Shown here one piece after another: positions 3,134 through 53,319 of a stretch of DNA of 64,000 nucleotides (within the stretch, counting starts at the first letter, position 1; each line of letters opens with the position of its first letter). This DNA comes from Candidatus Collierbacteria bacterium (GTDB taxonomy: Bacteria; Patescibacteriota; Microgenomatia; UBA1400; MFAQ01), in the NCBI GenBank assembly GCA_903884375.1, contig CAISER010000025.1:1637-65636 (forward strand), written 5' to 3'. Both the position numbers and the translations under genes were made by a program. A model generated the notes under the pieces. It searched no databases and was not told the DNA's origin. It saw only the letters and a list, made by a program, of their open reading frames with translations.

Positions 3134-3221
3134 GAGGACATTATCCTCTATTTGATGTTTTAACTCTTTGGAGACTGACCCCGGAGTACCGAGGACGAGT
3201 TGCTCCGCAAGTCGTCCGAAA

Positions 3222-35502: not shown

Positions 35503-36255
35503 TTAGTTTTCGATTAAGGAACCCTCAACTACCAAGCGACGTAGTGTGGTTCCAGGAGGGACACAGGTCACTACTTTTATCGTTTTGGAATTGTAATTTT
35601 GTTTTAATACCCAGAGTTCAGAGGGTTTTACTTCAATTACTTTGGTAACCCGGTAGGTGTACTCTTTGTCATTGTATTTGACGAATATGTCCGAGCCAGG
35701 TTTTATTTTTGGAAGATTGGAAAAAATAGTGGTGTATTTTTGTGCATCAAAAAATTGGGGAAGGGTGGAATGGCCAAAAATAACCGGTGAGCCGACCTGC
35801 CCAGGAAGAGCTGTTTGAGGATACTGAACCAGATGTTTAGTAAGATCTTCATCAAAAAGACTAACTTTTGCTTCTGCTAGACCGAGAGAGGGAATCGAAA
35901 TGGTATAAAATTCCGGAATTTCTCCATCATTTTCGATAGGTGAATTGAAAAGCTGATTTTGAGTACTACCTGGGAACCAACTACTGGCTTTGGTGTAGTC
36001 TAAATCACTTAATACTTTGGGTTCACTATCCGAATTTGCTTTTGATTCGTAGTAAACAGGTGACAACAAACCTTGGTCTTTTGAGTTGAAAAGATTTATA
36101 TCTTTAAGCTGATAACTGACAACCGGATAAATAACTGCACCAAGAATCCCAAGCCCCAAAGCAGAAATTAGAGTAGGAATTGTTTTTAGATAGATAGGAA
36201 TTTTTTTCCCGGGATGCGGATTTTTTGCCGTAGCCTTTTTGTACCCGTAGAGCAT
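35503..36255 (-). CDS. sortase-family transpeptidase
   Basis: N-terminal TM anchor, catalytic His context VIFGHSTLP, the Cys motif KVVTCVPPG and a downstream Arg (TTLRRLVV). Confidence 0.75.
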   Translation of the reverse strand: MLYGYKKATAKNPHPGKKIPIYLKTIPTLISALGLGILGAVIYPVVSYQLKDINLFNSKDQGLLSPVYYESKANSDSEPKVLSDLDYTKASSWFPGSTQNQLFNSPIENDGEIPEFYTISIPSLGLAEAKVSLFDEDLTKHLVQYPQTALPGQVGSPVIFGHSTLPQFFDAQKYTTIFSNLPKIKPGSDIFVKYNDKEYTYRVTKVIEVKPSELWVLKQNYNSKTIKVVTCVPPGTTLRRLVVEGSLIEN

Positions 36256-36256
36256 A

Positions 36257-38419
36257 TTATTTCTCTTTCAGCTCAAACTTGATGTTTTTTAGAGGAATAT
36301 AGTTGGCAAAAACAGGAATTTTGGGAGATATTCTGATGGTCAGATGGTCAAAACCTTGGATTGTGGTAAAAAAAGGACGAATATCGGCGGCCGGTTTCCC
36401 TTTGATAAATCCAGCAGTTTTTATCTCATCAATTTTAGGAAAAAGACTGGTTTCCACATTTATTTTGGCTTCATAGAAACTTCCTTTATTGGTGGGAGTT
36501 TCAAGTTTCATGGAAGTGTTACCGGGAAAAATTTCCGAACCGGAAGAAATTTTTGGAGAAAGCTGATTCGAAACTAACTGAAATAATCCGTCTTCGGAAT
36601 AAACAAGTGTTTCAACAGAACCTTCTAAATCAAGGTTGAGAACGGTGGCTTCTTCACCAACATTTTTATCAAAAGTTTTTTTGGTATAGGTAAAATCAGA
36701 CAGGGCTAAGGATTTATAACCCGTTGTTTGATCCCCTGTCGATGATTGAATCTGGGACGTTATCTTTTCACCAGCGATTTGAAGTAATTTTTCTTGATCA
36801 ATTTTCGAAACTGCTTGAACAGCTCTCGACGTACCACCGGAAAAGTCTGAGTCCGCCACAGCTACAATGGTGTTTTTTGAGTAGTTATCAACTGAAAAAG
36901 CAGAATTTTTGGGTAGATTGTGATCGGCACCAATTTTAGTAGCAGTTACTTTTACGCCTGAGGCAATTCCATAAGCACCCTGAACAATACCGACATCGGC
37001 GCTTTTGGAAGCGATGGTAATAGCCTCAGTAATGAGATAAGAATATTTGCCATTATCAGATAAGATTGAAGCACCTGATTTTAGAATAATCGGAGCAGTT
37101 GATTTGTTGGCGACAGTGATAATACCATTAGCTTTATCACCAACTGTTGCTTCTCCAGTGGTTGGAATTTGTTCTTTGGCGGAACCGAAAACTGTTTTTT
37201 TGGTGGCAAGTAGAGTTGGCGAACCGGAAATAGTGCTCTCGGCTATTGAAATTGAAAATTGATCGTTAATTTTTTCAGGTTTGAAATATATAGAGATGAT
37301 TGCTTGGCCGGTAAAAAGATAAAAAACAAAGCCTAAAATCAAAAATGCGGGAATAATAAGAAGATATAACCAGGAAAATTTACTTATTTTTAAGTTTGGA
37401 AAGTGAAATTTGGGTAATGAAGGAAGGGGTAGGGTATATTTTTGTTTGGGAGTTTTTATAAGAAGCGGTTCTTCGGGTTCAATAGCATATTCCGATTCTT
37501 CAGGTTCCGTTACCGATTCTATAATTGGCTCGGGCGGAGCTTTTTCAAGTGAGTCTGGAGCGGTTGATTCTTCGTAAGAAAAACCCAATTCACTTATAGA
37601 AGATGGTGTAACTTCGGGGATATAAATATTTGTTTCTTCTCGCGGAAGACTTTCTTCGTGAGTGTCTTCGATAACTTGCCCGGTAAGGTACTGAACAGCT
37701 TCGGTTCCTCCGGTGAGAGCAATGGCTTTAATACTAAAATCAACTGCCAATACTTCAACTTTTGGCATGTGCTGAAAAGGAAGGCGTTCTTGCCACGGAT
37801 GTGAAGTTATTCGTTGTTCCTCTTCTTCCAAGACTCCACCGTTAGTGAGAATAAAACGAGTGGGAAGTTTTTCGTGGCCGATCACGGTAAGCCCTTCTTC
37901 TACATCTTGTGCGAGGTCATCTGACCTTGCAGCTTCTTCTGAAGAAGTAATTTCACCTTTTTCTATAATTGAAACAACAACTTTGGTGGTATAAATCTCT
38001 AACAGAATAGCTGTCGGAGGAATACCTTCAAGTTTTTTCATGTAATGGGCAATTGCCGAGTTTATGGGAACCATACCAATCGGGTTAAGGCCCAACTCTT
38101 TTACCAGTCTGGCAATAAGTTTCGTTTTTGAAGGATGTATTTTGCCGTCATGTATCCAAGAATCCGGCAAACCAAAAATGACTTTACGCGGTTCTGCTTT
38201 AATTATTTTGACAGCTTGTTCGAGAGAGGCATCAACACCATTAATAAGTGAGTCTTCATCGGTCCAAGACTCAAATGAACCGACACTTACAACCGAAGGA
38301 TTGCCATTGGCAATTTCCCAAAGGGCGGTTTTGATTAAAGATTCATGGATTTCGATGGCCAAAAAATATTCCGGTTCTGTGGATTTTGATTTGTTCCCAA
38401 ATAGATTTACAAGATTCAT
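36257..38419 (-). CDS. bitopic membrane protein: cytoplasmic PilM/FtsA-like actin-fold domain, acidic/Pro linker, TM helix, large beta-rich external domain
   Basis: The N-terminus FLAIEIHESLIKTALWEI...LGLNPIGMVPINSAIAHY...LEIYTTKVVVSII resembles PilM/FtsA ATPase folds. TM helix is FSWLYLLIIPAFLILGFVFYLF. The C-terminal ~350 aa is Ser/Thr/Gly-rich. Start placed at the ATG at 38419 (the track start is a TTG). Confidence 0.5.
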   Translation of the reverse strand: MNLVNLFGNKSKSTEPEYFLAIEIHESLIKTALWEIANGNPSVVSVGSFESWTDEDSLINGVDASLEQAVKIIKAEPRKVIFGLPDSWIHDGKIHPSKTKLIARLVKELGLNPIGMVPINSAIAHYMKKLEGIPPTAILLEIYTTKVVVSIIEKGEITSSEEAARSDDLAQDVEEGLTVIGHEKLPTRFILTNGGVLEEEEQRITSHPWQERLPFQHMPKVEVLAVDFSIKAIALTGGTEAVQYLTGQVIEDTHEESLPREETNIYIPEVTPSSISELGFSYEESTAPDSLEKAPPEPIIESVTEPEESEYAIEPEEPLLIKTPKQKYTLPLPSLPKFHFPNLKISKFSWLYLLIIPAFLILGFVFYLFTGQAIISIYFKPEKINDQFSISIAESTISGSPTLLATKKTVFGSAKEQIPTTGEATVGDKANGIITVANKSTAPIILKSGASILSDNGKYSYLITEAITIASKSADVGIVQGAYGIASGVKVTATKIGADHNLPKNSAFSVDNYSKNTIVAVADSDFSGGTSRAVQAVSKIDQEKLLQIAGEKITSQIQSSTGDQTTGYKSLALSDFTYTKKTFDKNVGEEATVLNLDLEGSVETLVYSEDGLFQLVSNQLSPKISSGSEIFPGNTSMKLETPTNKGSFYEAKINVETSLFPKIDEIKTAGFIKGKPAADIRPFFTTIQGFDHLTIRISPKIPVFANYIPLKNIKFELKEK

Positions 38420-38430
38420 GACGACAGTCG

Positions 38431-40269
38431 TCAAACAAATTGTAAATAAAGGCGGCGTGTCCCTGCGCCAAGCGACTCTTGTTTGACTATCTTTATCTTA
38501 GCAAGTTCTTCAGTGTTCGTCACGTGGGGACCTCCACAAATCTCTTTGGAAAACGGATTATTTTTGTTCCCGATGGTGTAGACACTAACAATATCAGGAT
38601 ATTTTTGTCCAAAAAAGGCCATGGCACCTTCTTTTATTGCTTTTTCTTTAGGCATTTCTTCGCGGGTGACCGCTTGTTTTTCTGCGATAGTTTTATTAAT
38701 TAATTCTTCGACCTGTAGGAGCTCTCCGTCTGTTAATTTTTCTGGGTGAGAAAAATCAAACCTTAGTCTTTGCGCTGTTAAATTTGAACCTTTTTGACCA
38801 ATATGGTTTCCAAGTATTTGACGTAGAGCCGAGTGAAGAAGATGAGTAACAGTATGATAAGCGGTGACTGTTTTTGAGTTGTCTTCAAGACCACCCTTAA
38901 ACATACCAACAGAAGCAGTCCGACTAAGTTCTTTGTGTTTTTCAAATTCGGTTTCAAATTGATTGGTATCGATTTTAATATCCATTTGAGACAAAATCTC
39001 TGTGGTAATTTCAATGGGGAAACCGTAGTTTTGGTAAAGGTCAAAGGCTGTTTTCCCATCAATGTGGGGGTTTTTTTGAAGTTCTTTAATTCCTTTATCG
39101 AGTGAGAAACCAAATTTTTTTATTTCTACCCTTATCGTTTCAAAAATAACCGGAATATCTTTTTTTATTTCAAAATATATGGGTGAGTAAAATTGACAGA
39201 CAAGTGAACTTATTGGAGCCATCTTTTCCAGTATTTCGAGATTGCCTGTAAGAAAATACATTTTTACAGCTGCGCGGCGAAGTAGTCTTCTTAAAACATA
39301 GCCTTGAGCTTTATTTGTGGGGAAAACTCCGTCTTTAATCAAAAAAGTTGCAGCAGTTAAATGGTCTGCAATAACTCGCATTGAGGGCTGATTGATAACA
39401 TCAGAGTAAGACTTACCAGATATTTTTTCGATTTCTTGAATCAGGGGGTATAGGCTGCTAATTTTAAACATATCCGGTTCGGAATTGGTAACTGCTTCGA
39501 GTCTGGTAAGCCCACCACCAAAATCAATATTTTTTCGAGGAAGCTCCACCAAAGAACCGTCTTCATTTTTAATATATTGCATAAAAACAGAATTACCAAT
39601 TTCCAAGAAACGTCCACATTCACAGTTGGGGTGACATTTTTCATTTTTAAATGGTGATTTTTCATGAAGCAGACGATTTTCACCAAAATCAAAGAAAACT
39701 TCAGAATCTGGACCGCCTGGTTCACCTGGGGGCATATTTTCCGGCACCCCTGCTCTAGACCACCAATTTTTATTTGACTGATAGGCAAAAATGCGCTCAC
39801 CTTCTTTTGCCGTAAGACCGACTTTTTTAAATAAATCTTGCCAGATGGCAATTGATTCAATATCCTTACCCACTCCAGAACCACCCCCAAATACCGTGAT
39901 AAATAATTTTTTAGGGTCAAGACCAAGACCTTCATCTTTTTTTGTTAAAAATGTAAAAAACCATTCGAGCTGTTTGTCTTTAAAATAATCGCCTAAAGAC
40001 CAGTTCCCTAACATTTCAAAAAAAGTGGTATGACGATTATCACCAATTTCATCAATGTCACCAGAACGGAAACATTTTTGAGAATCAACCAGACGGGTAC
40101 CAAGGGGATGTTTTTGACCTAATAGATAAGGCATCATGGGTTGCATCCCAGCGGAAGTAAAGAGAGTAGTGGCGTCACCTTCTGGAACTAACGAAGAAGA
40201 GGGAATAATGGAATGACCTCGTTTTTCCATAAATAAGAGATATTTCTGCCTTATTTCATTGATGGTCAT
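38431..40269 (-). CDS. alaS: alanine--tRNA ligase lacking the C-Ala domain
   Basis: FTSAGMQPMMPYLLG class II motif. Editing-domain metal motifs HTVTHLLHSALR and CGGPHV. The protein ends right after the editing domain (612 aa). Confidence 0.9.
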   Translation of the reverse strand: MTINEIRQKYLLFMEKRGHSIIPSSSLVPEGDATTLFTSAGMQPMMPYLLGQKHPLGTRLVDSQKCFRSGDIDEIGDNRHTTFFEMLGNWSLGDYFKDKQLEWFFTFLTKKDEGLGLDPKKLFITVFGGGSGVGKDIESIAIWQDLFKKVGLTAKEGERIFAYQSNKNWWSRAGVPENMPPGEPGGPDSEVFFDFGENRLLHEKSPFKNEKCHPNCECGRFLEIGNSVFMQYIKNEDGSLVELPRKNIDFGGGLTRLEAVTNSEPDMFKISSLYPLIQEIEKISGKSYSDVINQPSMRVIADHLTAATFLIKDGVFPTNKAQGYVLRRLLRRAAVKMYFLTGNLEILEKMAPISSLVCQFYSPIYFEIKKDIPVIFETIRVEIKKFGFSLDKGIKELQKNPHIDGKTAFDLYQNYGFPIEITTEILSQMDIKIDTNQFETEFEKHKELSRTASVGMFKGGLEDNSKTVTAYHTVTHLLHSALRQILGNHIGQKGSNLTAQRLRFDFSHPEKLTDGELLQVEELINKTIAEKQAVTREEMPKEKAIKEGAMAFFGQKYPDIVSVYTIGNKNNPFSKEICGGPHVTNTEELAKIKIVKQESLGAGTRRLYLQFV

Positions 40270-41641: not shown

Positions 41642-43762
41642 TTATTCTTCCAAAGTTTCGTTTTGGGGCAGATATTCATCAAAACTGCTAACAATAATTT
41701 CACGGGGTTTGTTGCCTTCAGCATGGGCCAAAATACCGGCATTTTCCAACTGGTCGAGGATTCTGGCTGCTCTGGCGTAGCCGACTTCGAGACGCCGTTG
41801 AAGAAGGGAGGCCGAACCCTTGCCTTCGGCGATACAGAGTCTGGCAGCTTCTTCAAATTTTTCGTCAACGTTACCTAAGTCTTGACCATTGGTGGACATG
41901 GTCCCTTTAGTAGAAACATTCCGAGTAATAGTGTCATCAACCTTTGCTTCAACTCCCATGCTCTTTATGTATCTAATTAGGTCGCCAATTTCTCGTTCAG
42001 AAACGAAGGCTCCTTGAATACGTTTGGGTTTGGCAACGTCTGGAGGAATAAATAACATATCGCCTTTACCTAATAGTTTTTCGGCACCTGGTGAGTCAAT
42101 AATGACACGAGAATCGATCATGGAAGTGACTTGGAAAGCAATACGGGCAGGGACATTGGCCTTGATAATACCAGTCAAAACGTTAACTGATGGACGTTGG
42201 GTGGCAAGAACCAAGTGAATACCAACGGCACGAGCCATCTGGGCTAACCTAACAATGCGATTTTCAACTTCCCCGGCATTTTTACTCATCATAATATCGG
42301 CAATTTCATCAATAACAATGACAATATAAGGCATGGATTGAAAGGCTTTACTTTCGTTGTAACCAGCAATATTTTTAACACCAACCTCTTGGAATATTTT
42401 GTAACGAGTTTCCATTTCTTTGACAGCCCAACCAAGAGCGTTGACTACTTTATCAACATCTACAATAACATCGGTAAGAAGATGAGGAATTCCACTGTAA
42501 GGAGTAAGTTCGACACGTTTTGGGTCAACCATGATAAATTTAACTTCTTCAGGAGAAGCACGGAAAAGAATTGAGGCGATAAAGGCATTAATTAAAACGG
42601 ATTTTCCGGAACCTGTAGTTCCGGCTATAAGAACGTGAGGCATTTTGGCTATATCAACAGTACAAGCTGTGCCAGAAACATCAAGACCTAACGAAACCAT
42701 GGTTTTTGATTTACTGCTTTGCATGGCCGGAGAACTTAGCATGTCTCTCAGAGAAACAAATTCAAGTGAGCGATTAGGTATTTCGATACCGACCAAGTCT
42801 CTCCCGGGGATGGGGGCTTCAATACGAATTTGACCTTGGGGAGCTGACAGAGCCAAGGCCAGATCTGATTGAAGTGCGTTTATTTTACTTAGCTTTGTCC
42901 CCATAGCGATAGTGAGAGCATACTGAGTGACTGCAGGACCTTTGTGAACTTCGGAAACTTGAGCTTCAATTGAAAATGATTTCAAAGTATTTTGAATGAT
43001 TTCAATATTTTTGTTGATATCACCACGATCGGCTTTGCCAAGTTTTTGATCAGAGAGAAGATTAATGGGAGGATATTGCCAAATAGTAGCCGTAGCTCCT
43101 TCGAGTAGTGGCTTGGGCGGAAGCTGACTTACTGGTTGAGTCTTGATTTTTGCTTCTTGATGAATAACCGGTGTGGTTGGTGTAAATGTATCCTCTCCAC
43201 CAGTAATTTTGACTGAACCAGGTTTACTAACGAAAACGGTGCCATTTCTTTTTCCTAGAGTTTGAAGTTTATTTCCAGCATCACCAACTTTTTTGGCACC
43301 TTCCTGAATAAAAAGGACTAGGTCTTCGATTGAAGTCTCAAAAAGAATAAATAAACCGATGGCGGTACCGACAACAAAAAAGAGAATGGCTCCAGGTGTT
43401 GAGATCAGAGAAACAATAGAGTCTTTTATACCAACACCAATACTGCCCGAACCTGTAAGACCAGATAACGAAATCATCGTTACAACACTACCCAATAGAA
43501 CATGAGCAGATGCAATGGCTAGTTTAACATGAGTCAACATTAAGCCACCAGAAATAAGAATAAAAGGAATAAAAAGAAGTGGCCAACCGAGTAACCCGCG
43601 GCCAACTTCATTGACCTTGGTTAAAAAGACGCCTTGTTGGGAGAAAGAAATAGCGATTAAACCACCTATTCCCATAATTAGAACGGCCATGATGGAATTC
43701 ATGGTGTCTTTTTTAAGATTTAGTTTGTAAGGTTTTGAACGGCGACCTTTTTTACGAGCCAT
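41642..43762 (-). CDS. ftsK: DNA translocase FtsK/SpoIIIE
   Basis: N-terminal TM helices, Walker A LIAGTTGSGKSVLIN, Walker B VIVIDEIADIM, and the gamma winged-helix ASLLQRRLEVGYARAARILDQLE. Confidence 0.92.
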   Translation of the reverse strand: MARKKGRRSKPYKLNLKKDTMNSIMAVLIMGIGGLIAISFSQQGVFLTKVNEVGRGLLGWPLLFIPFILISGGLMLTHVKLAIASAHVLLGSVVTMISLSGLTGSGSIGVGIKDSIVSLISTPGAILFFVVGTAIGLFILFETSIEDLVLFIQEGAKKVGDAGNKLQTLGKRNGTVFVSKPGSVKITGGEDTFTPTTPVIHQEAKIKTQPVSQLPPKPLLEGATATIWQYPPINLLSDQKLGKADRGDINKNIEIIQNTLKSFSIEAQVSEVHKGPAVTQYALTIAMGTKLSKINALQSDLALALSAPQGQIRIEAPIPGRDLVGIEIPNRSLEFVSLRDMLSSPAMQSSKSKTMVSLGLDVSGTACTVDIAKMPHVLIAGTTGSGKSVLINAFIASILFRASPEEVKFIMVDPKRVELTPYSGIPHLLTDVIVDVDKVVNALGWAVKEMETRYKIFQEVGVKNIAGYNESKAFQSMPYIVIVIDEIADIMMSKNAGEVENRIVRLAQMARAVGIHLVLATQRPSVNVLTGIIKANVPARIAFQVTSMIDSRVIIDSPGAEKLLGKGDMLFIPPDVAKPKRIQGAFVSEREIGDLIRYIKSMGVEAKVDDTITRNVSTKGTMSTNGQDLGNVDEKFEEAARLCIAEGKGSASLLQRRLEVGYARAARILDQLENAGILAHAEGNKPREIIVSSFDEYLPQNETLEE

Positions 43763-43795
43763 ATTTAATCTAAGTATAGCTTAATGAATTAAATT

Positions 43796-45454
43796 TTAAA
43801 CCTCAAGAAGAATGGCTATAACCAGAGGACGTCTTTGGGTATGATCGAAAGCAAATTTCTCAAGTTGGCCTTCAATCTTTTTTCTAATAAATCCCCAATC
43901 TGTAGCTTGACCTTTGAGATCTTTAAGACATGCATAGACATGTTTCCGAGCATCGTTTATCAACTCTTGCGATTCTTTTTGATAAACGAAACCTCTGGAA
44001 ATAATTTCAATATCTCCGGTTACCTGAGAGTTATCTCGACGCATGGGAACAATGGCCAGTAATATGCCGTCGGCGGACATGACTTGTCGGTCTCTTAAAA
44101 CAACCGTTCCAACATCACCAATACCTAAGCCATCTACGTAAACGTTTCTGGTTTCGATTTTGGGACCTTGTTTGACGATTCCTCCTTCCAATACAATGGA
44201 CTGGCCGTCGGAGAGAACAAAAACTTTTTCAGGGTCAAAGTTCATTTCTTTGGCTAGGTCTTTATAAATCATCATGTGACGAAGATTGCCGCCAATAGGA
44301 ATAATGTTTTTGGGTTTTATCAAACGGGCAAGGAGAGTTAAATCACCTCGATATCCATGACCAGAAACATGAAGATTTTCGGAAGTGCCTGAGTATGTTA
44401 CTTGAATACCTCTTTTGTAGAGAGTGTCGAGTAAATCGAAAATGTCACCTTCATTCCCGGGAATAGCATCGGAACTAATGAGTACTTTGTCACCTTTTTT
44501 TAACTTTATCTGAGTATGTTCGTCATTGGCAAGACGATGCATAGCGGAACCAACCTGGCCTTGAGAACCGGAGACAATAACCGTTACTTGGTGTGCGGGA
44601 AGTGTGGAAACTTGCTGACTTTTAATAAATATTCCTTTGGGGATTTTGATAAAACCATTTTTGGCGGCGGCTTCGACATTTTGTTCGACACTACGCCCAA
44701 TGATGGCTACACGACGATGATATTTGGCACTGGCATCGATGGCCATCTGAATACGAGAAATCGAAGAAGACATGGTAGTAAATATCATTTTGCCTTCGGT
44801 GGAGCGAACTTCACTGTCTATGGCTGTGAGTAAAGAACGTTCCGATGGACAGAAGCCGTTTTTTTCAACACGAAGACAGTCGGTAAGCATCAAGTCAACA
44901 CCGTTATTCCCGGCAACGGCCATGGCACCCATATCCGGAGGAAGATTATCTATTGGTGTTAAATCAAACTTAAAATCGGCACCATGATATACGGTTCCGG
45001 CGGGAGTTTTGATGAGAACATGAAAACAGTTGGGGACGGAGTGAGTGATATGAATGAATTCCAAGTGGAAAGGTCCAAGATTTAGAACTCCTTCAACAGG
45101 TGTCATTTTGTTAGTTATGCCAAACTCGCGAACTTTGATTTCGGCAATAGCGATAGCCAATTTGCTTCCATAAACTTCGATGCCTTTAAGACGAGGAAGA
45201 ATGTAAGGCAAACCACCAACATGATCTTGATGGGCGTGGGTTAGAACAATTCCATGAAGCTTTTTATTGGAGTGCTCAAGATAACTAATATCGGGAATAA
45301 CGGCATCGACGCCAAGGGCGTCATCTTTGGGGAAACCCATACCACAATCAATCACAATTTGATCGTTGCCATATTCATATACGTACATATTTTTGGTGAC
45401 GTCACCGACGCCTCCCAAAGGAATAATTTTTAAAGGAATTTTTTTAAAATCCAT
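43796..45454 (-). CDS. rnj: ribonuclease J (metallo-beta-lactamase / beta-CASP)
   Basis: HAHQDHVGG motif, N-terminal IIPLGGVGDVTKNMYVYEY, and HVSGHG. Confidence 0.9.
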   Translation of the reverse strand: MDFKKIPLKIIPLGGVGDVTKNMYVYEYGNDQIVIDCGMGFPKDDALGVDAVIPDISYLEHSNKKLHGIVLTHAHQDHVGGLPYILPRLKGIEVYGSKLAIAIAEIKVREFGITNKMTPVEGVLNLGPFHLEFIHITHSVPNCFHVLIKTPAGTVYHGADFKFDLTPIDNLPPDMGAMAVAGNNGVDLMLTDCLRVEKNGFCPSERSLLTAIDSEVRSTEGKMIFTTMSSSISRIQMAIDASAKYHRRVAIIGRSVEQNVEAAAKNGFIKIPKGIFIKSQQVSTLPAHQVTVIVSGSQGQVGSAMHRLANDEHTQIKLKKGDKVLISSDAIPGNEGDIFDLLDTLYKRGIQVTYSGTSENLHVSGHGYRGDLTLLARLIKPKNIIPIGGNLRHMMIYKDLAKEMNFDPEKVFVLSDGQSIVLEGGIVKQGPKIETRNVYVDGLGIGDVGTVVLRDRQVMSADGILLAIVPMRRDNSQVTGDIEIISRGFVYQKESQELINDARKHVYACLKDLKGQATDWGFIRKKIEGQLEKFAFDHTQRRPLVIAILLEV

Positions 45455-45697
45455 ATTTATTTATTTAATTACTAAACTTTCAACACAGAATCACTGCTTG
45501 AATACGCCACAATAAGGTGGCAAAACTTAATTTATTTTACACTTACTAAGGGGATTGTTTTCGGAACCAAAGCTGCAATAAACTTGGGGTCAAAGATACT
45601 TTTCTTAGTCAAGCCAAAACTTAATATAGGACTATTATACCACAATAATAAATAATTAGTGTTTACATTGAAGAGAAAAAGAGTAAACTATTTTTGA

Positions 45698-47062
45698 ATG
45701 GAAAAATTGGTGAAAGAAAGAGTGATTCGAATATTTAATTTATCAGAGGATGTTTGGCCTTTTATTGAAACGATGGGCAACAAAAAGGCAAGAATGTCGG
45801 AGATTGAGGAAAACGCAAACTTGGCCGACCGTGATTTGTTTTCAATGGCTGAGGAGTTTGAGTTTACCTTTATCACTCCCAAAAAACTGGATCCCCATTT
45901 CGTAAACTACTTTATCAAAGTTTGTATGATGCGGGAAATGGAAGTATTGGTTCCCAAAAAAAATAGTGGACTTATTTGTGAGGATATTTTGGCGGATAAG
46001 GAGATTATGAAGAGGCTTGTTAAACTGGGGAAGAGCTGTAAAAGATTGGTGCTTACCGCCTACTCTACTTCGCCATATTTTTTACACTTGGTTGGCGAGT
46101 TACGGAAAAAGGGAATTGAAGTACGAACACCAGAAGCTCCAGATGAGGCTAATGCTTGGACGGTAAATTTTTACGGAAGCAAATCGGGGATAAGACAACT
46201 GACACAGATAAACGGGGCAATTAGAGCGGACTTGAAAATGCCTAATGGAGTTGTTTCCTCGGGAGTGTTGGACTCTGCAAGGATAGCGGCAAATAAATAT
46301 ATAAAGGAAAATGGAGTAGTAATCAAAACAAACAAAGGCCACTCAGGAATGGGAGTACTTATTTTCCGTAAAGGTGATTTGCCGAAAAAATATCGAGAGT
46401 GTCAGAAAAAAATTATTGAAATATTTAACGGAGACAGTTACTGGGAAAAATTTCCGATCGTGGTGGAGTCTTTGGTAAAACCCAATCCTCGGATCGGAGG
46501 AGGTTTTCCAAATGCGGAGTTTTTGATAAAAAAAGATGGCGAGGTAAAACTTTTGTATTACTGTGGAATGCGAGTAGACGACAAGGGCGTTTTTGGCGGA
46601 GTGGAGATAGGAGAAGAAGTATTGCCTCGTCGTGTGACTTCCAGAATTACCGATATCGGTTATCTAATTGGCGAACAGTATGCCGAAGACGGTTATCGTG
46701 GTTTTTTTGATATTGATTTTATTGCCGGAAAAGGTGGAGAGATATTTGTGAATGAGTCGAATGTAAGAGTCACTGGAGGAACACATGTGTATCAAGCAGC
46801 AGTAGAACTGGCTGGGCGAGAGTTTATGAAGAAAGTCTATGTGTTGTCGAATAATAACTACGATATTCCAAACAAAAAAATCTTTACTTTCGACAGACTT
46901 CATAAACTAATGAAACCGATACTTTTTGACAGAAAAACGCGTGAGGGATTGGTGATTGCATCGTCAAATCTATTGGCAATGGGAAAACTGGCTTACATTA
47001 TTTTTGGAAAAAATAAACGTAGAGCTTTGGCCGTCGAGGAAGAGATGACGAGATTATTATAA
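45698..47062 (+). CDS. ATP-grasp ligase with pre-ATP-grasp domain (PGM1-like peptide-ligase family, tentative)
   Basis: YGSKSGIRQL..., the central strand VVIKTNKGHSGMGVLIF, and the Mg/ATP-site region FFDIDFIAGKGGEIFVNESNVRVTGGTH. One of only four plus-strand genes. Confidence 0.55.
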   Translation: MEKLVKERVIRIFNLSEDVWPFIETMGNKKARMSEIEENANLADRDLFSMAEEFEFTFITPKKLDPHFVNYFIKVCMMREMEVLVPKKNSGLICEDILADKEIMKRLVKLGKSCKRLVLTAYSTSPYFLHLVGELRKKGIEVRTPEAPDEANAWTVNFYGSKSGIRQLTQINGAIRADLKMPNGVVSSGVLDSARIAANKYIKENGVVIKTNKGHSGMGVLIFRKGDLPKKYRECQKKIIEIFNGDSYWEKFPIVVESLVKPNPRIGGGFPNAEFLIKKDGEVKLLYYCGMRVDDKGVFGGVEIGEEVLPRRVTSRITDIGYLIGEQYAEDGYRGFFDIDFIAGKGGEIFVNESNVRVTGGTHVYQAAVELAGREFMKKVYVLSNNNYDIPNKKIFTFDRLHKLMKPILFDRKTREGLVIASSNLLAMGKLAYIIFGKNKRRALAVEEEMTRLL

Positions 47063-47193
47063 ATATAGAATGGACCCCTCTCCCGCTCAACCAGGTTTGT
47101 TACAAAACTGGTTTCGCAATCGTCGCAAATTCCTTATGCTATGTTTTTTATAATCTGCACAAGGCATATTATGAAAAACCGGGAATTTACTCC

Positions 47194-48255
47194 TCACCAC
47201 TTTGGTAGAAATGATTTTATATTTTCGGGCGTGAGAGATATTGTCTTGGCTTGACCGGTAACAATTAATAGAGCAACTTTACGGACAATACCTTCGATCG
47301 TGCGATTTAGGGTACGAATACCGGCGTCGTAACCTAGAGGACGAATAATCATCGGCCAGAGAGCAGGGTCAATGGTAATGATTGAGGGATCCATACCGGC
47401 GGCTTCCAAAGCTTTGGGGAATAGATATTCGAGGGCAATATGAGTTTTTTCATCGTCGGAGTAAGAAGGCATTTGAATTGGTTCCAAACGATCCATAACG
47501 GCGGTCGCTAAATTGCCCGTGTTGTTGGCCGTGGCGATAAACATAACTTCGGAAAGGTCAACGGGGTAATCAATAAAGTGATCGAGAAAACGATTGTTTT
47601 GCGTTGGATCAAGAAGCTCGACCAAAACACCCATAATATCAGCTCTGGCTTCTTCGGTAACACGGTCGATTTCATCCAGAAGAATAATGGGGTTTTTAAC
47701 TCCCGTATCACAAAGAGCTCTGACCACATAACCAGGTTCGGCTTCAAGATGTAGACGAGACTGGCCACGTAAGTCTTTAGCTGAACCCAAACCTCCAAAA
47801 GGAATACGGGCAATGGGGCGGCCAAGCGCTTCAGAGAGGGCATAAGCAAAAGTAGTTTTACCGGTACCAACAAGACCAACTAAGCAAACAATCGGAGCTC
47901 TCCCCGCTCCAAGGTTTCTGGTGGTACGGAGTTTTAAGATAGACATATATTCAAGAATTCGTTCCTTGACCTCGTTCATGCCGTAGTGATTTTTATCAAG
48001 TGTGGCCTTGATAGCAGTTAAGTCAATCGGGCGTTCGACTCTTTTTGTCCAAGGAACTTTGGCAACCCAAGAAATATAGTGGCTGATTTTTTCGTATTCT
48101 TCAGAAAAAAATCCTTGGGTGGAAAGACGCTCGAGACGAGCAATCATATCAAGAGTATTTTCTTTTAACTCTGGGGGTGTTTCGATACTTTCAATTTTTT
48201 GACGAAGATCATCAAGAAGAGTATTGGCTTTTGTGGTGATTGGAGCAGGATCCAT
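47194..48255 (-). CDS. stand-alone Lon-type AAA+ ATPase module (no LAN N-domain, no protease domain)
   Basis: Collinear with the Lon ATPase region: VPWTKR, HYGMNEVKERILEYM, Walker A GLVGTGKTT, Walker B IILLDEIDR, FIATAN, MDRLE and YDAGIRTL. The ORF stops (…SFLPKW) where Lon proteins continue into the Ser-Lys peptidase domain. Confidence 0.75.
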   Translation of the reverse strand: MDPAPITTKANTLLDDLRQKIESIETPPELKENTLDMIARLERLSTQGFFSEEYEKISHYISWVAKVPWTKRVERPIDLTAIKATLDKNHYGMNEVKERILEYMSILKLRTTRNLGAGRAPIVCLVGLVGTGKTTFAYALSEALGRPIARIPFGGLGSAKDLRGQSRLHLEAEPGYVVRALCDTGVKNPIILLDEIDRVTEEARADIMGVLVELLDPTQNNRFLDHFIDYPVDLSEVMFIATANNTGNLATAVMDRLEPIQMPSYSDDEKTHIALEYLFPKALEAAGMDPSIITIDPALWPMIIRPLGYDAGIRTLNRTIEGIVRKVALLIVTGQAKTISLTPENIKSFLPKW

Positions 48256-48367
48256 AGTTTCATTATATCCGTTTTAAAAAATACTTAGATCAGAATAAAT
48301 CACACACTCTATCTAAGAAAAGGATCTTTATCGAGGATATTATTAAATAGGGCTGCTGTTAATTTTA

Positions 48368-49363
48368 TTATCGAATATTGTAGGTTGGTGGCTTAGTGCT
48401 GCCGCTACCGGTGTTAATTCTGCACAAACTATCGTTAGTACAAGTGCTTTTAGGACATGTTGAGCTAATATTGACAGTTTTTGATATTGATTTACAAAGA
48501 TTGTTACTACATGTTTTGTAAATACAAACTTTTGTGTTTGCCACTCCTGATCCCACTGTCGAGCATTTACATGTAATGCTCCCATCTTTACAGGTACACA
48601 CTCTGCTCTTTGATTGTCCTGTTCCACAACCTAATGATGCCGGACAATTACCGGAACATTGATTATATGATTGACCGCTGGCAAAAGTATAACCATCACT
48701 GGTAGTGCAAGTGCCAGGCTTAATGATGGTACCGGCACAAGTATTATCATTTGAGCCTTTGCATGTACTAGTAGGACAGGTCGAACTTTGTTTAAAGGTC
48801 ATGTTATATGACTTACACTGACCCTGATAACACTGGGACCATTTACATTCTTTAGTCCCTGAGGGAACGGGCTCTTTATCGGCTATGCATTGGCCGACTG
48901 CGGAACTGGCGGTATAGTTTAAGGCAATTTTTCCATTACCACAGTGATAACCAGAGCAACACTGCCGGACATCATTCCAAGAAAAAACTCCACAGTGTCC
49001 ACCTTCTTCCACACACCTATTTGAAGTTGGTCGAGGTTTTTCAGTGCAATTCGATGGTTTACAGCTCGCGGTAAACGCTCTGCTCTCGCCTCCACCAGTG
49101 TAAGCGCAAATTTCTCCGGTTTTGCAGCCACCTTCCCAACCACATTTATTTGCGGTTGCCAGGCTGCTGCCACAAGTAACGTTTGCCGCTGCTGGTTCAC
49201 TTTCTGGAGCATTGGGGGCTACGGCTTGTCTGGCAGTTAATTGAGCAGCAATAAAAAGAACGGCACCAAGAATAGCAGCAAAAATTAAGACAGGAAAAAA
49301 CTTTTTCAAAAAAGGATTAGTATGCTGTTTGACAATCGTCTTCTTGGGCATCTTCTTGGCCAT
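48368..49363 (-). CDS. membrane-anchored/exported cysteine-rich protein (32 Cys) with internal repeats
   Basis: Basic N-terminus plus TM/signal anchor FFPVLIFAAILGAVLFIAAQL, then 32 Cys in about 270 aa. Two paralogous modules carry the pattern C..CKS.....T....SSTCP.STC. Confidence 0.6.
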   Translation of the reverse strand: MAKKMPKKTIVKQHTNPFLKKFFPVLIFAAILGAVLFIAAQLTARQAVAPNAPESEPAAANVTCGSSLATANKCGWEGGCKTGEICAYTGGGESRAFTASCKPSNCTEKPRPTSNRCVEEGGHCGVFSWNDVRQCCSGYHCGNGKIALNYTASSAVGQCIADKEPVPSGTKECKWSQCYQGQCKSYNMTFKQSSTCPTSTCKGSNDNTCAGTIIKPGTCTTSDGYTFASGQSYNQCSGNCPASLGCGTGQSKSRVCTCKDGSITCKCSTVGSGVANTKVCIYKTCSNNLCKSISKTVNISSTCPKSTCTNDSLCRINTGSGSTKPPTYNIR

Positions 49364-49409
49364 ATTAGTGTGAGTTAATTATTAATTAAATTAATTAACC
49401 TCTGTTTTA

Positions 49410-49437
49410 ATAATAACTGTTTTTTTGTAAAGGTCAA
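49410..49437 (-). promoter_or_regulatory. candidate sigma-70-type promoter of the Cys-rich gene
   Basis: The minus strand reads TTGACC (49437-49432), a 16-nt spacer, then TATTAT (49415-49410). It lies just downstream of the pnp terminator. Confidence 0.35.
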
Positions 49438-49444
49438 ATTAACA

Positions 49445-49469
49445 AAACGCCCCGAGAATCGGAGCGTTT
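49445..49469 (-). terminator. intrinsic terminator after pnp
   Basis: On the minus strand: AACGCTCCGA-TTC-TCGGGGCGTT (10-bp stem with one mismatch) followed by TTGTTAATTT. Confidence 0.65.
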
Positions 49470-49499
49470 ATTGCTAAGGCCTAACTTTATTATTCTACA

Positions 49500-51677
49500 T
49501 TAACGAGAGTCTCTAAAATTGCGGAAGTTTGGACGACCACCACCTCTTTGACCGCCTCGATCACCACCGCCAAATCTTGGCCTGTCTCCTCCGCCACCCA
49601 TAGGTCGCTGTGCTCTTATTGGTTCCTCGCCTTCTTTGAGCATGGTGAGATTTACGCGACCCATGGAGTCTACTTCGTAACATCTGACTTCAACTTTGTC
49701 GCCGATTTTCATTGTTTTGAAAACTTCTGGTTGGACTTGGGAAATATGAACTAAACCATCTTTCCCCGGAAGAATATTGACGAATGCGCCAAAAGCTTCA
49801 ACTCTAGCAACAGTACCTTGATAGGTCATGCCAACTTCGGCTTCGGCAACAATGGAATCAATGAAAGCTCTGGCTGCATCTACCTTGGATTGATCTGTAC
49901 CGGTAACGGTAACAGTACCATCATCTTCGATGTTGACTTCAACTAAGAAATCATCTTGGATTTGGTGAATGATCTTGCCACCTGAACCAATAACGTCACC
50001 AATCTTGGCAACCGGGACTTTGGTGGAAACAATTTTAGGAGCGTACTGAGATAGTTTTTCGCGTGGAACAGAAATGGATTCGACCATGAGGTCTAGAATC
50101 TTCATTCTGGCACGTTTGGCTTGTTCAACAGCTTGGGTTAGGACTTCGGCTTTGATACCCGTAACCTTGACGTCCATTTGGAGAGCGGTGATACCGTCTT
50201 TGGTTCCAGCGACTTTGAAATCCATGTCACCTAGGTGATCTTCGAGACCACAGATGTCGGTGAGGGTGACAAAATCTTTGCCTTCGGTAATTAGTCCCAT
50301 GGCAGTACCGGCAACAGGTTTTTTAATTGGAACACCAGCGTCCATGAGAGACAAGGTAGAACCACAAATTGAGGCTTGAGAAGTAGAGCCATTTGAAGAC
50401 ATAACTTCAGAGACAACACGAATGGTATACGGGAAAACGGCGGTGTCTGGAAGGACAGGAACCAAGGCTCTTTCGGCAAGATTCCCATGACCAATCTCAC
50501 GGCGACCTGTACCTGGGCGACCAACTTCACCGGCTGCGTAGCCTGGCATGTTGTAGTGATGCATATAGCGCTTGGTGGTTTCACCCTTCATACCATCGAT
50601 AAGCATTTCTCTGGCTGGAGAAGCTAGAGTAACAACCGAAAGTACATGAGTAAGTCCTCTTTGGAAAAAGGCAGAGCCGTGAGTACGAGGAAGCAAACCA
50701 ATCTCGATATTGATAGGGCGAATATCCTCGATTCCACGTCCGTCTGGTCTGGTTTTGGTTTCGAGAATGGTTTTTCTAGCCTCGTCACGAAGCATATGAT
50801 CAGCGGTTTCGGCAATGTGACTAGCATTGTATTCTGGATGAGCGGCGATAATGCCGTCGACGATTTCTCTAGCTTGGATTCCAGTTTTGGTAGCTTCGTT
50901 TTTCAAGATTACTTGAAGATCTCCAATTTCGGCGCTAACAAACTTTTTAATTTCAGAATCTATAACGATTTCAGGGATAGTACGTTTGGCTTTGCCGTTT
51001 TCTTTGGCAAATTTGTCAATTCCTTCGGCAATGATGTCGACATATTTTTGAGCGTAGGCAAGGGCGCCGGTCATCTTTTCTTCGGAAACTTCATTGGCTC
51101 CGGCCTCAACCATACAAATGCCCCCCTTAGGACCAGAAACGACAAGATCGAGAGGAGAAACAAGCTTTTCTTGCTCATTTGGGTTGATGATGTACTCACC
51201 TTCTGGGGTCATACCAACACGAACAGCACCAACCGGTCCGGCCCATGGATAGTCAGAAAGAGATACAGCAGCTGAAGAAGCAATAATGGCTAAAATTTCT
51301 GGCTCTTCGACTCCATCGATGGAGAGAGGATAAGACATGATCTGAACTTCATTTCTTGAAGCTTGATCAAACAAAGGACGGAGAGAGCGATCGATCACAC
51401 GACCAACAAGGATTTCACCTTCTGAAGGACGTCCTTCACGTTTTATAAAACGACTGGAAGAAATAACTCCACCTGCGTAGAATTTTTCTTGGTAATCAAT
51501 GGAAAGAGGAAAATAATCAATTCCTTCTTTAACTCTGTTTGTGGCTACTACTGAAGCAACAACTATAGTGTCGCCGCATCTTGCAGTAACAGAACCTGAG
51601 GCCTGGGCACCAAAACGGCCGGTTTCGATTGTAATTGTTTTACCATTGAGAACAATGGTAGTTTGAGGATGTGTCAT
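49500..51677 (-). CDS. pnp: polyribonucleotide nucleotidyltransferase (PNPase) with RGG-rich C-terminal tail
   Basis: Two RNase PH domains, KH motif IGDVIGSGGKIIHQIQ and an S1 domain. Start placed at the ATG at 51677 (MTHPQTT...), which is preceded by AAGGA. The track start is a GTG. Confidence 0.93.
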   Translation of the reverse strand: MTHPQTTIVLNGKTITIETGRFGAQASGSVTARCGDTIVVASVVATNRVKEGIDYFPLSIDYQEKFYAGGVISSSRFIKREGRPSEGEILVGRVIDRSLRPLFDQASRNEVQIMSYPLSIDGVEEPEILAIIASSAAVSLSDYPWAGPVGAVRVGMTPEGEYIINPNEQEKLVSPLDLVVSGPKGGICMVEAGANEVSEEKMTGALAYAQKYVDIIAEGIDKFAKENGKAKRTIPEIVIDSEIKKFVSAEIGDLQVILKNEATKTGIQAREIVDGIIAAHPEYNASHIAETADHMLRDEARKTILETKTRPDGRGIEDIRPINIEIGLLPRTHGSAFFQRGLTHVLSVVTLASPAREMLIDGMKGETTKRYMHHYNMPGYAAGEVGRPGTGRREIGHGNLAERALVPVLPDTAVFPYTIRVVSEVMSSNGSTSQASICGSTLSLMDAGVPIKKPVAGTAMGLITEGKDFVTLTDICGLEDHLGDMDFKVAGTKDGITALQMDVKVTGIKAEVLTQAVEQAKRARMKILDLMVESISVPREKLSQYAPKIVSTKVPVAKIGDVIGSGGKIIHQIQDDFLVEVNIEDDGTVTVTGTDQSKVDAARAFIDSIVAEAEVGMTYQGTVARVEAFGAFVNILPGKDGLVHISQVQPEVFKTMKIGDKVEVRCYEVDSMGRVNLTMLKEGEEPIRAQRPMGGGGDRPRFGGGDRGGQRGGGRPNFRNFRDSR

Positions 51678-51731
51678 CCTTAAATCCTTTCTTTTTCGCG
51701 CCACCCTTCTTGAGAAGAAAACAGAAGATAC

Positions 51732-51747
51732 CCAAGGACACCCTTGG
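51732..51747 (-). promoter_or_regulatory. hairpin in the rpsO-pnp intergenic leader
   Basis: CCAAGG-ACAC-CCTTGG, a perfect 6-bp stem, nested inside the outer complementary arms CTTGAG (51709-51714) and CTCAAG (51769-51774). Confidence 0.4.
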
Positions 51748-51775
51748 ACGGATATACTCTATTTACTCCTCAAGC

Positions 51776-52066
51776 TTATTTTGCTGAGTCGCGCAACTGA
51801 CTGTTAATGTTTAGAGACTTGGTAACTTCAAGATAATCTTTTGAATTGGATTTTAGAAGATAATTTAGGAGGCGGCGTCTTTTGGAAATAATCTTTAAGA
51901 GGCCACGTCTGGAATGATTATCTTTATTGTGAACTTTTAGATGATTGGTGAGTTCTTCGATTTGGGCAGTGAGAAGGGCAATTTGCACACGAGGAGAACC
52001 AGTGTCTTTGTCACTGGCAGCGAAGGATTTTATGATATCTACTTTTGTTTCGGATTTAAGAGCCAT
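51776..52066 (-). CDS. rpsO: 30S ribosomal protein S15
   Basis: [48 protein letters not shown]. Start placed at the ATG at 52066 (the track start is a TTG). Confidence 0.92.
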
Positions 52067-52131
52067 ATCGGGTTGTATTGTAACAGATGTATTTCGTTTT
52101 GCCAAGACTGAACTGTGCGTAAAGAAAAAAT

Positions 52132-52389
52132 TTAATCATCGGAATCAAGGTCTTTGTCTTTGGTTGGTTGAGATTTCCAGATACCACCCTTGTCTTCAGG
52201 CTCAACTGGTTCAAGTTCATTACCCCAGGCTCTAAACATTCTTACTTGTCTGGGGGTAAGTTTCCGGATCAAGACAACCCTTTCCCCTGTTTCGGGGACA
52301 ATCCCTGTTTCATAAGTACCGTCGGGTCCTTTTATCTTAAAAGGACGCGTAATATCGTCGTCTTGTTCGTATTCTGGTATTCCACCCAT
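52132..52389 (-). CDS. small acidic protein of unknown function (85 aa)
   Basis: ORF with an ATG start in the operon between the DHH-like gene and rpsO. I recognise no motif. Confidence 0.45.
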
Positions 52390-52404
52390 ATTAACTATAT
52401 TATA

Positions 52405-53319
52405 TCAACCATTGTCACCAACACGGAAGATTTTAGGTTTGTTCCAGTCTGCCGGGATTGAGGTACCAGCTTCATTGGTAGATAGGTTTTCTTCTTCCGG
52501 AAGAGGAATGTTTTCTTCGGTAGGAGCCGATGGAACATCGGGCACTTCAAAAAATGGCGCTTGGGAAAAACGAGGAGTTTGAACTTTTGTTTTTGGAAGA
52601 TGAGCACCGGAGCGCATAAGGAAAGCAATGGCTTCAAAGGTGTCTGCCGTTAGATTGCCTGTGGATAAATTATTGGAACTTTCGTAAATATTGGTTAATA
52701 GATTTTGAGAAACAGAAGTGTTTAGTTTTAATTTTAATTCCTTGAGAAGACCAATAACCAACTCAGAAAAAGAACCCATGTTTTTGTGATAAAGATTGCC
52801 GGTAAATGCGGCTGGTCGAAGAGTATTGTTGAGATTTAGAATGGTGGCATTATCCAAAAAGTTTTTTTCATCGGCATAAATTTTTCCTAATTCTTCGAGA
52901 GAATTAATACCAAGAGTAATGACTAAGTCGGCTTGAGCTCCTGAGTAAGAGTATTTAACACCGCCGATATCGGGAACGGGAGCACCAGTTTTGGGTTTTA
53001 CCAATAGATAAAATTTGCCGTCATCTCTGACATCGTAGTCAACTTTATCCAAATCTTCTTCACGATAATCAAAGGAGATAATTAAGTTACGACTACCAAT
53101 GGAGTCGGGGATGTTTTTTATACCATTAGTTTCGTCATCAACTTCGACTTCACTTCCACAACCGATTTGAGAAATTTTCCCTGATTGTTTTAGAGCAAGA
53201 TGAAGACTGATTCCGGCGGTAACAAGATCTTTTCCTGGATCGGGAGGAAGAATAATAATAATAGACTTGGCAGATTTAATTAAATTATTAACGTTTATTT
53301 CCGATTTGTTGTCTTCCAT
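52405..53319 (-). CDS. DHH-fold (NrnA-like) protein with all catalytic motifs substituted and no DHHA1 domain
   Basis: Collinear with the NrnA DHH domain, but motif I is PPDPGKD (for PDPD), motif II is ITLGINS (for VCDTAN), motif III is LNLNNT (for IDHH) and motif IV is YESSNNL (for VGDTGRF). The C-terminus is a Pro/Glu-rich tail. Confidence 0.55.
   Translation of the reverse strand: MEDNKSEINVNNLIKSAKSIIIILPPDPGKDLVTAGISLHLALKQSGKISQIGCGSEVEVDDETNGIKNIPDSIGSRNLIISFDYREEDLDKVDYDVRDDGKFYLLVKPKTGAPVPDIGGVKYSYSGAQADLVITLGINSLEELGKIYADEKNFLDNATILNLNNTLRPAAFTGNLYHKNMGSFSELVIGLLKELKLKLNTSVSQNLLTNIYESSNNLSTGNLTADTFEAIAFLMRSGAHLPKTKVQTPRFSQAPFFEVPDVPSAPTEENIPLPEEENLSTNEAGTSIPADWNKPKIFRVGDNG

Follow-up and report, generated by a model that had tools for sequence, protein, structure and literature searches.

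Proteins that join a conserved anchor to a variable, cysteine-rich outer part are a design already known from other organisms. The variant-specific surface proteins (VSPs) of Giardia join a hypervariable ectodomain, about 10% of it Cys and different between closely related cells, to a conserved anchor/leader, and in a wider sense the conotoxin-type gene families, with a conserved leader and a hypervariable mature part, follow the same design. Cys-rich envelope proteins are found in a reduced-genome, host-dependent bacterium as the chlamydial OmcA and OmcB, and conserved N-terminal regions are paired with sortase signals in the YSIRK-type proteins of Gram-positive bacteria. Small units built on disulfides include the inhibitor cystine knot (ICK) peptides, which are free eukaryotic peptides, and the carbohydrate-binding modules of family CBM1 (PF00734), which to our knowledge are essentially eukaryotic. 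For the bacteria of the candidate phyla radiation (CPR, Patescibacteria) we know of essentially no surface contact molecules outside a few cultivated Saccharibacteria. A "secreted cysteine-rich protein" is mentioned in passing for Roizmanbacteria (PMC6509639). Here we analyse a stretch of 64,000 nucleotides from Candidatus Collierbacteria bacterium (assembly GCA_903884375.1, contig CAISER010000025.1, positions 1,637 to 65,636), hereafter the window, in whose coordinates all positions are given, and in it a gene for a membrane-anchored protein of 331 amino acids (aa) with 32 Cys. Its outer part is replaced as a cassette between near-identical strains, and its N-terminal region defines a lineage-specific protein family; these are the most informative facts about the locus and both were absent from a preliminary description of this DNA.

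Results

The gene and its local context

The complete gene occupies 48368..49363 on the minus strand (996 nt, stop codon included, ATG start), as found from the list of open reading frames (ORFs) and from translation with a count of Cys. The 32 Cys make up 9.7% of the residues against a background of 0.80% (128 of 16,017 residues in the 36 window ORFs of at least 200 aa), and no further real gene in the window exceeds about 2% Cys. The GC content and third-position GC content (GC3) of the gene and of the cassette described below equal those of the neighbouring genes in this genome of 40% GC. The preliminary description had counted 32 Cys and had placed three segments at residues 173-209 (48737-48847), 280-314 (48422-48526) and 117-159 (48887-49015); translation confirms the Cys at the implied positions and all three segments map exactly. 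There are six N-x-S/T sequons against about 4 expected from composition (an estimate), which is chance level and is given no weight.

In the region between pnp and the Cys-rich gene, a consensus scan found a promoter-like site, TTGACC-16-TATTAT (49410..49437, minus strand), with a terminator-like hairpin just upstream of it (49445-49469). Both are pattern matches only, and they suggest that the Cys-rich gene is a transcription unit of its own. The exact window protein is present in public collections as P0001, a cluster of one. The identical allele was also found in two more, independent assemblies, L115 and L116, which correspond to 43194-48883 and 43194-48820 of the window, are both 100% identical to it and both break off inside the Cys-rich gene. 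Such breaks are compatible with population heterogeneity at the locus, although this is anecdotal.

Replacement of a cassette between strains

The window was compared with a near-identical strain (L001, from Logan SRR22250822) and with more distant relatives. DNA identity to the near-identical strain is 98.8% over 43000-48216 and 97.4% over 49183-53247, and the proteins encoded by the neighbouring genes are 100% (S15), 99.7% (PNPase), 96.9% (Lon-like AAA protein), 100% (ATP-grasp-like protein) and 100% (RNase J) identical. Between these flanks blastn detects no similarity to L001 over 48217-49183. As delimited by blastn and column-wise identity, this strain-variable cassette (48217..49183) extends from residue 61 of the Cys-rich protein to its stop codon, through the intergenic region and into the downstream AAA gene, of which it takes in the first 13 codons. 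At the 5′ end the break is sharp; it falls right after the codons for ...ESEPAAA and coincides with the 3′ end of the stalk-coding sequence. On the 3′ side identity returns gradually over the first ~125 codons of the AAA gene, and sliding identity in the alignment of window and L001 marks a tract of lowered identity (~80-90%) in the 5′ part of that gene (47880..48216), which is probably the tail of a recombination import.

The allele of the sister strain, P0002, is a protein of 182 aa with 14 Cys and the architecture module A, PT-linker, module D (the modules are described below). Its leader is identical to that of the window protein at 59 of 60 positions, its module A is only 37% and its module D 54% identical, and modules B, C and C are absent. 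In every relative seen, the position next to rpsO-pnp holds a different Cys-rich member of the family (331, 182, 255 and 189 aa), and in the more distant relatives extra family copies flank the AAA and ATP-grasp genes on both sides. A replacement of this extent is not explicable by point mutation at a background divergence of 1-3%, and points to recombination with a divergent allele or paralogue. The arrangement indicates that the sequence coding for anchor and stalk may have acted as one homology arm of this recombination. Because GC and GC3 of the cassette are the same as those of its neighbours, the donor would belong to a related lineage; no donor was found at the DNA level among the 120 loci compared.

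Several other origins of the variability were considered and rejected. Against a phage origin, the family has no relatives in viral contigs and the ectodomain has no match in phages. A diversity-generating retroelement was rejected in view of the lack of a long repeat pair in 47000-49700 and of any unassigned large ORF nearby, and of a change by replacement and length instead of by point substitutions. There are no meaningful repeats around the gene that would make a shufflon. A polymorphic toxin/immunity locus was rejected since the variable tract ends in the conserved Lon-like AAA gene with no small ORF between; PADLOC and toxin-domain searches gave no match. Also dropped was a functional tie between the Cys-rich gene and its AAA and ATP-grasp neighbours, of the kind seen for ribosomally synthesised and post-translationally modified peptides, as these genes occur together only in the closest relatives and are not associated at the 30 genome loci described below.

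Anchor, stalk and topology

The protein starts with a basic cytoplasmic tail of 7 Lys and 1 His (residues 1-21, 49301..49363), which is followed by a single transmembrane (TM) helix that would act as an N-in/C-out signal anchor (residues 22-41, 49241..49300) and by a juxtamembrane stalk, QLTARQAVAPNAPESEPAAA (residues 42-60, 49184..49240); these and the modules below are all encoded on the minus strand. The stalk has the signature VAP(N/T)APESxPxA and is invariant in P0001-P0004. The hydrophobic stretch, of about 20 residues here, is kept family-wide at ~21 residues in 125 family members, and the 20 residues that precede it hold on average 3.6 Lys plus Arg against 1.1 Asp plus Glu. In the full-length AlphaFold model a helix at 17-45 is the only segment with a predicted local distance difference test (pLDDT) value around 70. 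Residues 22-60 agree with every conserved position of the family, and at motif position +11, which lay outside the search pattern, 100% of the family have Ala.

Some relatives have 100-160 cytoplasmic residues ahead of the helix, which argues for a type II anchor and against a signal peptide of the classical kind. No lipobox is present: the first Cys is residue 64, ~23 residues past the TM helix, and it is preceded by NVT. The C-terminus, ...CRINTGSGSTKPPTYNIR, has neither an LPxxG/LPxTG motif nor a hydrophobic segment, and thus carries no sortase signal. The preliminary description had proposed an exported protein with a signal anchor at residues ~21-41. The Lys-rich tail and the hydrophobic residues 22-41 bear out the anchor, and the positive-inside tail, the TM helix and an N-terminal region common to family proteins with sortase signals support an extracytoplasmic location of the Cys-rich part.

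A protein family of the Microgenomates

We define the family by a basic tail or cytoplasmic extension, a TM helix of ~21 residues, the motif [ST]xQL[ST]x[RQ]Q-x-VAP[NT]APES-x-P-x-A and then a variable, usually Cys-rich ectodomain. Neither the whole protein nor its ectodomain or single modules have a significant match in Pfam, NCBIfam, PADLOC or PDB sequences, and in the literature searched we found no curated family, solved structure or paper describing it; the family is unannotated. A word-indexed search returned three relatives (P0002-P0004) that are alike over residues 1-90 and then diverge. An exhaustive search of 1.8 billion representatives returned 14 proteins, 13 of them matching through the N-terminal region, with the TM helix, the stalk motif and usually module A in common. 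With a profile of the N-terminal region, a large protein search yielded one weak match. A motif scan, with relatives confirmed by tblastn, added 30 genome loci and 79 metagenome loci, and the family now has at least 128 distinct proteins from 114 loci. All the named genomes that carry it are Microgenomates (Collierbacteria and Woesebacteria); some third-party-annotation bins bear generic labels.

Among the 108 family genes complete at the 3′ end, 46 code for a C-terminal LPxxG motif with a TM helix, which is a sortase sorting signal, and family members are therefore envelope proteins. The window itself encodes a sortase, described below. The ectodomain Cys count is odd in 88 of the 108 complete proteins. 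By type, it is odd in 21 of 21 proteins with a YxFEAQ-type C-terminal domain and in 42 of 46 with LPxxG, and in 17 small PT-rich LPxxG proteins the only Cys stands 6-10 residues past the invariant Ala. The odd counts hint at one Cys in the wider family that may be unpaired, intermolecularly bonded or otherwise covalently used. In the subfamily to which the window protein belongs the counts are even (32, 14, 24 and 30).

Most family members (in loci L006-L114, e.g. L006:1-12237 and L033:3102-6708) sit in a conserved cluster with the order PilN (PF05137), a gene of ~220 aa, a gene of ~110 aa, an fn3/Big_13 TM protein, then the family genes (one, or up to three in tandem), and after these an FAD amine-oxidase-like gene and DUF2298. 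The fn3/Big_13 TM protein of the cluster has an AGPTEAP-like stalk of its own, and PMT-type protein O-mannosyltransferases lie near the cluster in some loci. The cluster suggests that the family is linked to the type IV pilus apparatus and to protein glycosylation. The window gene lies outside this pilus-type cluster.

Ectodomain modules

The ectodomain consists of five modules, A, B, C, D and C, with 6, 6, 6, 8 and 6 Cys, each an even count, joined by short linkers of Pro, Thr, Ser and Gly. Module A (residues 64-106, 49046..49174; C-x9-C-x5-C-x5-C-x14-C-x4-C, 6 Cys) was delimited by alignments of relatives. It is the commonest first module of the family, for which an iterated hidden Markov model gives 29 instances, at least 17 of them distinct and some in tandem. 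The two copies of module C, delimited by sequence and a duplication test, lie at residues 173-209 (48737..48847; C-x4-C-x4-C-x12-C-x4-C-x7-C, 6 Cys) and at residues 280-314 (48422..48526; C-x4-C-x4-C-x12-C-x4-C-x5-C, 6 Cys). Module D (residues 219-267, 48563..48709, 8 Cys, ending in CxC-x6-CxC) was recognised by its similarity to the C-terminal module of P0002, which keeps 8 of 8 Cys; within the ectodomain it has the best AlphaFold prediction (beta strands, pLDDT 55-66).

The preliminary description took the two CKS...SSTCP.STC segments, now the copies of module C, for paralogues. They have 17 identities in 35 aligned positions and a BLOSUM62 score of 86, which none of 5,000 shuffles with the Cys held fixed reaches (mean 41, z = 5.6). 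The similarity thus exceeds that of a common Cys framework and the paralogy stands. At only 55% nucleotide identity between the copies the duplication must be old, and the common residues have been maintained by selection. Module C is known in seven sequence variants from three lineages: the window protein has two copies, and P0003 and the Collierbacteria proteins of ~620 aa have one each. The variants keep all six Cys as well as the TK-x-C, T-V and C-P-x-S-x-C positions, and the pattern never occurs in shuffled family proteins. As a whole, the homologous modules keep every Cys. Other relatives carry further Cys-rich modules that are not in the window protein, and by its sequences the family appears to draw on a lineage-specific module library. 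For modules A, C and D, Pfam and PDB sequence searches found no recognisable relatives outside the family. At E <= 10 Pfam gave no EGF- or granulin-like match, whether searched with the whole protein, with the ectodomain or module by module, and there is no confident match to a known domain family in Pfam, NCBIfam or PDB.

Module B and the knottin framework

Module B (residues 117-159, 48887..49015) has 6 Cys in the spacing C-x6-C-x10-CC-x4-C-x17-C, an ICK/CBM1-like framework, and is unique to the window allele; no other family member has it. Its Cys order C-C-CC-C-C is that of ICK peptides, and loops 1, 3 and 4 (6, 0 and 4 residues) fit. The five best PDB sequence neighbours (wrightide R1, tachystatin B1, tachystatin B2, mu-agatoxin-I and U2-segestritoxin) are all ICK peptides and all sub-threshold (E 0.57-4.2), and the best Pfam match is Tachystatin_B with 13.6 bits against a cut-off of 25 (E = 0.065).

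A likeness to CBM1 comes from P0005, a protein of eleven CBM1 repeats and the sole match from outside the family that the window protein has among the 1.8 billion representatives. The alignment core is G-x-C-G..W....QCC.GY.C, and the framework C-x10-CC-x4-C is shared with module B. A home-made CBM1 profile scores 13.4 bits against module B over 22 of 34 positions, which is equalled by 4 of 2,000 shuffles with fixed Cys. In this alignment the Gly stands three residues before the first core Cys, the last loop has one Tyr, and the structural Trp and the G-Y motif are kept. Pfam CBM_1 itself has no match to the protein or to module B alone, even at E <= 10. Taken together, framework and neighbours point to what may be a knottin-type unit, but its membership in any known family is not established.

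Other genes of the window

The gene directly downstream (47194-48255, minus strand) codes for no more of Lon than the AAA+ module and the lid (a match to positions 250-571 of 795) and is without the N-domain and the protease domain; its first ~125 codons lie in the tract of lowered identity. Convergent with it is a gene for an ATP-grasp-like protein of 454 aa (45698-47062, plus strand) with weak PGM1_C, pre-ATP-grasp and amino-acid ligase matches, which is 100% conserved in the sister strain and is flanked by more Cys-rich family genes in Kabuno-type relatives. Elsewhere in the window there is a sortase gene (35503-36255, minus strand; Pfam Sortase, E = 1e-20), directly downstream of an ORF of 725 aa without a Pfam or NCBIfam match (36257-38434, minus strand). 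A membrane-anchored GH39-like glycoside hydrolase (60352-61743, plus strand, E = 3e-26) is another exported protein, here a carbohydrate-active one, and a PGA_cap family protein, CapA-like and of the type for poly-gamma-glutamate capsule synthesis, is encoded at 2201-3262 (minus strand, E = 2e-61). Also an ORF of 167 aa with 5 Cys and a weak match to DUF2284 (predicted metal-binding) lies between secY and rplO (10188-10691, minus strand), an unusual insertion in a ribosomal protein operon.

Discussion

The reading we favour, in which our confidence is about even, is that of a strain-variable surface protein of a Microgenomates (CPR) bacterium, type II anchored and probably stabilised by disulfides, that serves in binding or contact. 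The basic tail and the one TM helix would fix the protein in the cytoplasmic membrane, and the conserved proline-rich stalk QAVAPNAPESEPAAA would raise the remainder off it. Modules A, B, C, D and C would each be held by internal disulfides (3, 3, 3, 4 and 3) and would form compact, protease-resistant binding units; an even Cys number and little hydrophobic core in each module make internal disulfides the most likely state, as far as can be told from the sequence. Module B would contribute the cystine-knot framework of small carbohydrate-binding and inhibitor peptides. The ectodomain may be drawn from the lineage-specific module library and swapped between strains by recombination through the anchor- and stalk-coding arm, and with such an exchange closely related cells would display different surfaces. 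This variability fits a protein that makes contact with a partner or host, or one exposed to phages or predators, which may be under diversifying selection.

A number of points weigh against this reading. The strain comparison has only one near-identical strain, the other relatives being more distant. As for the disulfides, many CPR habitats are anoxic, no Dsb, VKOR or other thiol-disulfide oxidoreductase is encoded in the 64 kb window, and the literature searched gave nothing on disulfide formation in CPR. A putative cleavage in the stalk may release the ectodomain from the cell. The remaining points concern module B. Its loops 2 and 5, with 10 and 17 residues, are longer than is typical of ICK peptides, whose usual ranges for these loops are shorter. 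The aromatic binding face of CBM1 is not conserved, and the likeness to knottins and CBM1 is below all family thresholds and largely driven by the Cys framework. Confidence in the AlphaFold models is low (pLDDT 40 with the full-length protein and a four-sequence alignment, 57.6 with module B alone); they were set aside, and Foldseek found no match of the module B model in PDB at E <= 0.001. The preliminary description had read an ICK signature in this segment. Its spacing is exact and the framework fits the fold, which, with sub-threshold matches and low-pLDDT models, is itself weakly supported.

The first alternative starts from the pilus genes. Given that most family members lie in the conserved PilN cluster, the window gene could be a dispersed paralogue with the same role, namely a structural envelope or pilus component that would be part of an apparatus spanning the wall or S-layer around type IV pili, or of a disulfide cross-linked lattice. 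An odd ectodomain Cys count in 88 of 108 members, with 17 proteins having a single Cys just past the stalk, suggests intermolecular disulfides, and the sortase signals in 46 of 108 agree with a place in the envelope. Against this, the window gene is outside the cluster, its Cys count is even, it has no sortase signal, and its product is without the C-terminal domains of the pilus-cluster members. Moreover, a part of a conserved machine is not expected to be replaced wholesale between near-identical strains. We therefore consider a structural role unlikely for the window protein. Even if it were an ordinary structural envelope protein, the analysis would still define an unannotated family and a conserved neighbourhood with pilus genes.

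A little less probable again is a secreted toxin, antimicrobial or inhibitor precursor, in which anchor and stalk would be the leader or pro-region. Cleavage near P-x-A would free the ectodomain, or cuts in the linkers would free single knottin-like peptides, to act on competitors, hosts or host proteases. A leader that is 98% identical while the mature part is unalignable would parallel the conotoxin and spider-toxin gene families, and the sequence becomes variable after the invariant Ala at motif position +11. The modules are separated by linkers, module B has toxins, inhibitors and an antimicrobial peptide as its neighbours, and family members with C-terminal sortase signals would need N-terminal release, since otherwise they would be tethered at both ends. 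The hydrophobic segment, however, has the length of a TM helix and, unlike a signal peptide, is preceded by 100-160 residues in relatives. The specificity of type I signal peptidase disfavours both a Pro directly after AVA and the Pro at -3 of P-x-A, which makes these poor sites, and the candidate site is ~20 residues away from the membrane. Also there is no immunity-like gene within the variable cassette and no dedicated protease or transporter adjacent to it.

That the Cys coordinate metal, in a zinc-ribbon- or metallothionein-like manner, or act as a surface thiol buffer in an anoxic habitat, with no disulfides formed, would agree with the lack of a Dsb or VKOR gene in the window and with the C-x4-C pairs that recur in module C; many of the source samples also seem to come from waters low in oxygen. 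We consider it improbable: 9.7% Cys is far below metallothioneins, there are no CxxC motifs and no His partners, each module has an even Cys number in a fixed spacing of its own, the predicted beta hairpins would place Cys on paired strands, and an extracytoplasmic location favours disulfides. A chance or decaying, non-functional ORF, which the missing functional annotation and the cluster of one in public data might suggest, is hardly credible for a 996-nt ORF with native GC3 in a 40% GC genome that has syntenic homologues, conserves Cys and motif residues at 55% nucleotide identity between its internal repeats, and recurs as an identical allele in independent assemblies.

Going beyond the contact protein that we favour, we offer a wider reading only tentatively and think it on balance doubtful. 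The TM helix and the VAP(N/T)APESxPxA stalk would form a Microgenomates-specific display or sorting module for a combinatorial library of small cystine-stabilised surface domains, and for part of the family the genes follow immediately on those for type IV pilus alignment. Recombination at the stalk boundary would let strains combine the domains anew, and the window protein would represent one of the alleles in a bacterial "variant surface protein" system, which could set host or partner specificity. Should such a display system exist, it would be a rare bacterial use of knottin-type folds, in bacteria that are ultrasmall and probably symbiotic.

The locus is a concrete candidate for a contact protein, with an anchor/stalk signature that can be searched for in any metagenome and an outer part of reusable Cys-rich modules that differs between strains of otherwise 97-99% identity. 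Should the modules prove to be binding units knotted by disulfides, very small genomes would invest in a fast-diversifying surface repertoire that depends on oxidative folding, and the modules would be markers of strain-level host specificity. The possible knottin/CBM1-like module would bring to bacteria a class of folds that is known chiefly from the toxins and inhibitors of eukaryotes and from fungal cellulases.

Comparison with known systems

At the level of the single module, tachystatin B, wrightide R1 and mu-agatoxin-I resemble module B in the C-C-CC-C-C order, the C-x6-C and CC-x4-C spacing and the CCxGYxC core. ICK peptides are its only PDB and Pfam neighbours, yet all scores are below the cut-offs, and in contrast to these free peptides module B lies inside a membrane-anchored, multi-module bacterial protein of 331 aa and has longer loops 2 and 5. 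With CBM1, the core G-x-C-G...W....QCC.GY.C of module B has the same framework as the CC-type repeats of P0005, and the extra N-terminal Cys at x6 is found in six-Cys CBM1s as well; the differences are a last loop longer by 8 residues and an aromatic triad of the binding face that is not conserved.

At the level of the whole protein, many family members pair a conserved N-terminal region with a C-terminal LPxxG, hydrophobic segment and tail as the YSIRK-type sortase-anchored proteins do, but the window protein has no sorting signal, and the family motif follows a full-length TM helix and is unrelated to YSIRK or NCBIfam signal models. OmcA and OmcB are similar in being Cys-rich envelope proteins, and the odd Cys of the wider family hint at possible cross-links; there is no homology, and the window protein differs in its even Cys count, its modular build and its strain variability. 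The likeness to conotoxin-type families and to the Giardia VSPs is an analogy of design with no sequence relationship. The VSPs, which have CXXC motifs, are type I proteins anchored at the C-terminus and are switched by control of expression, whereas the window protein has an N-terminal anchor and varies by allelic replacement of a cassette between strains.

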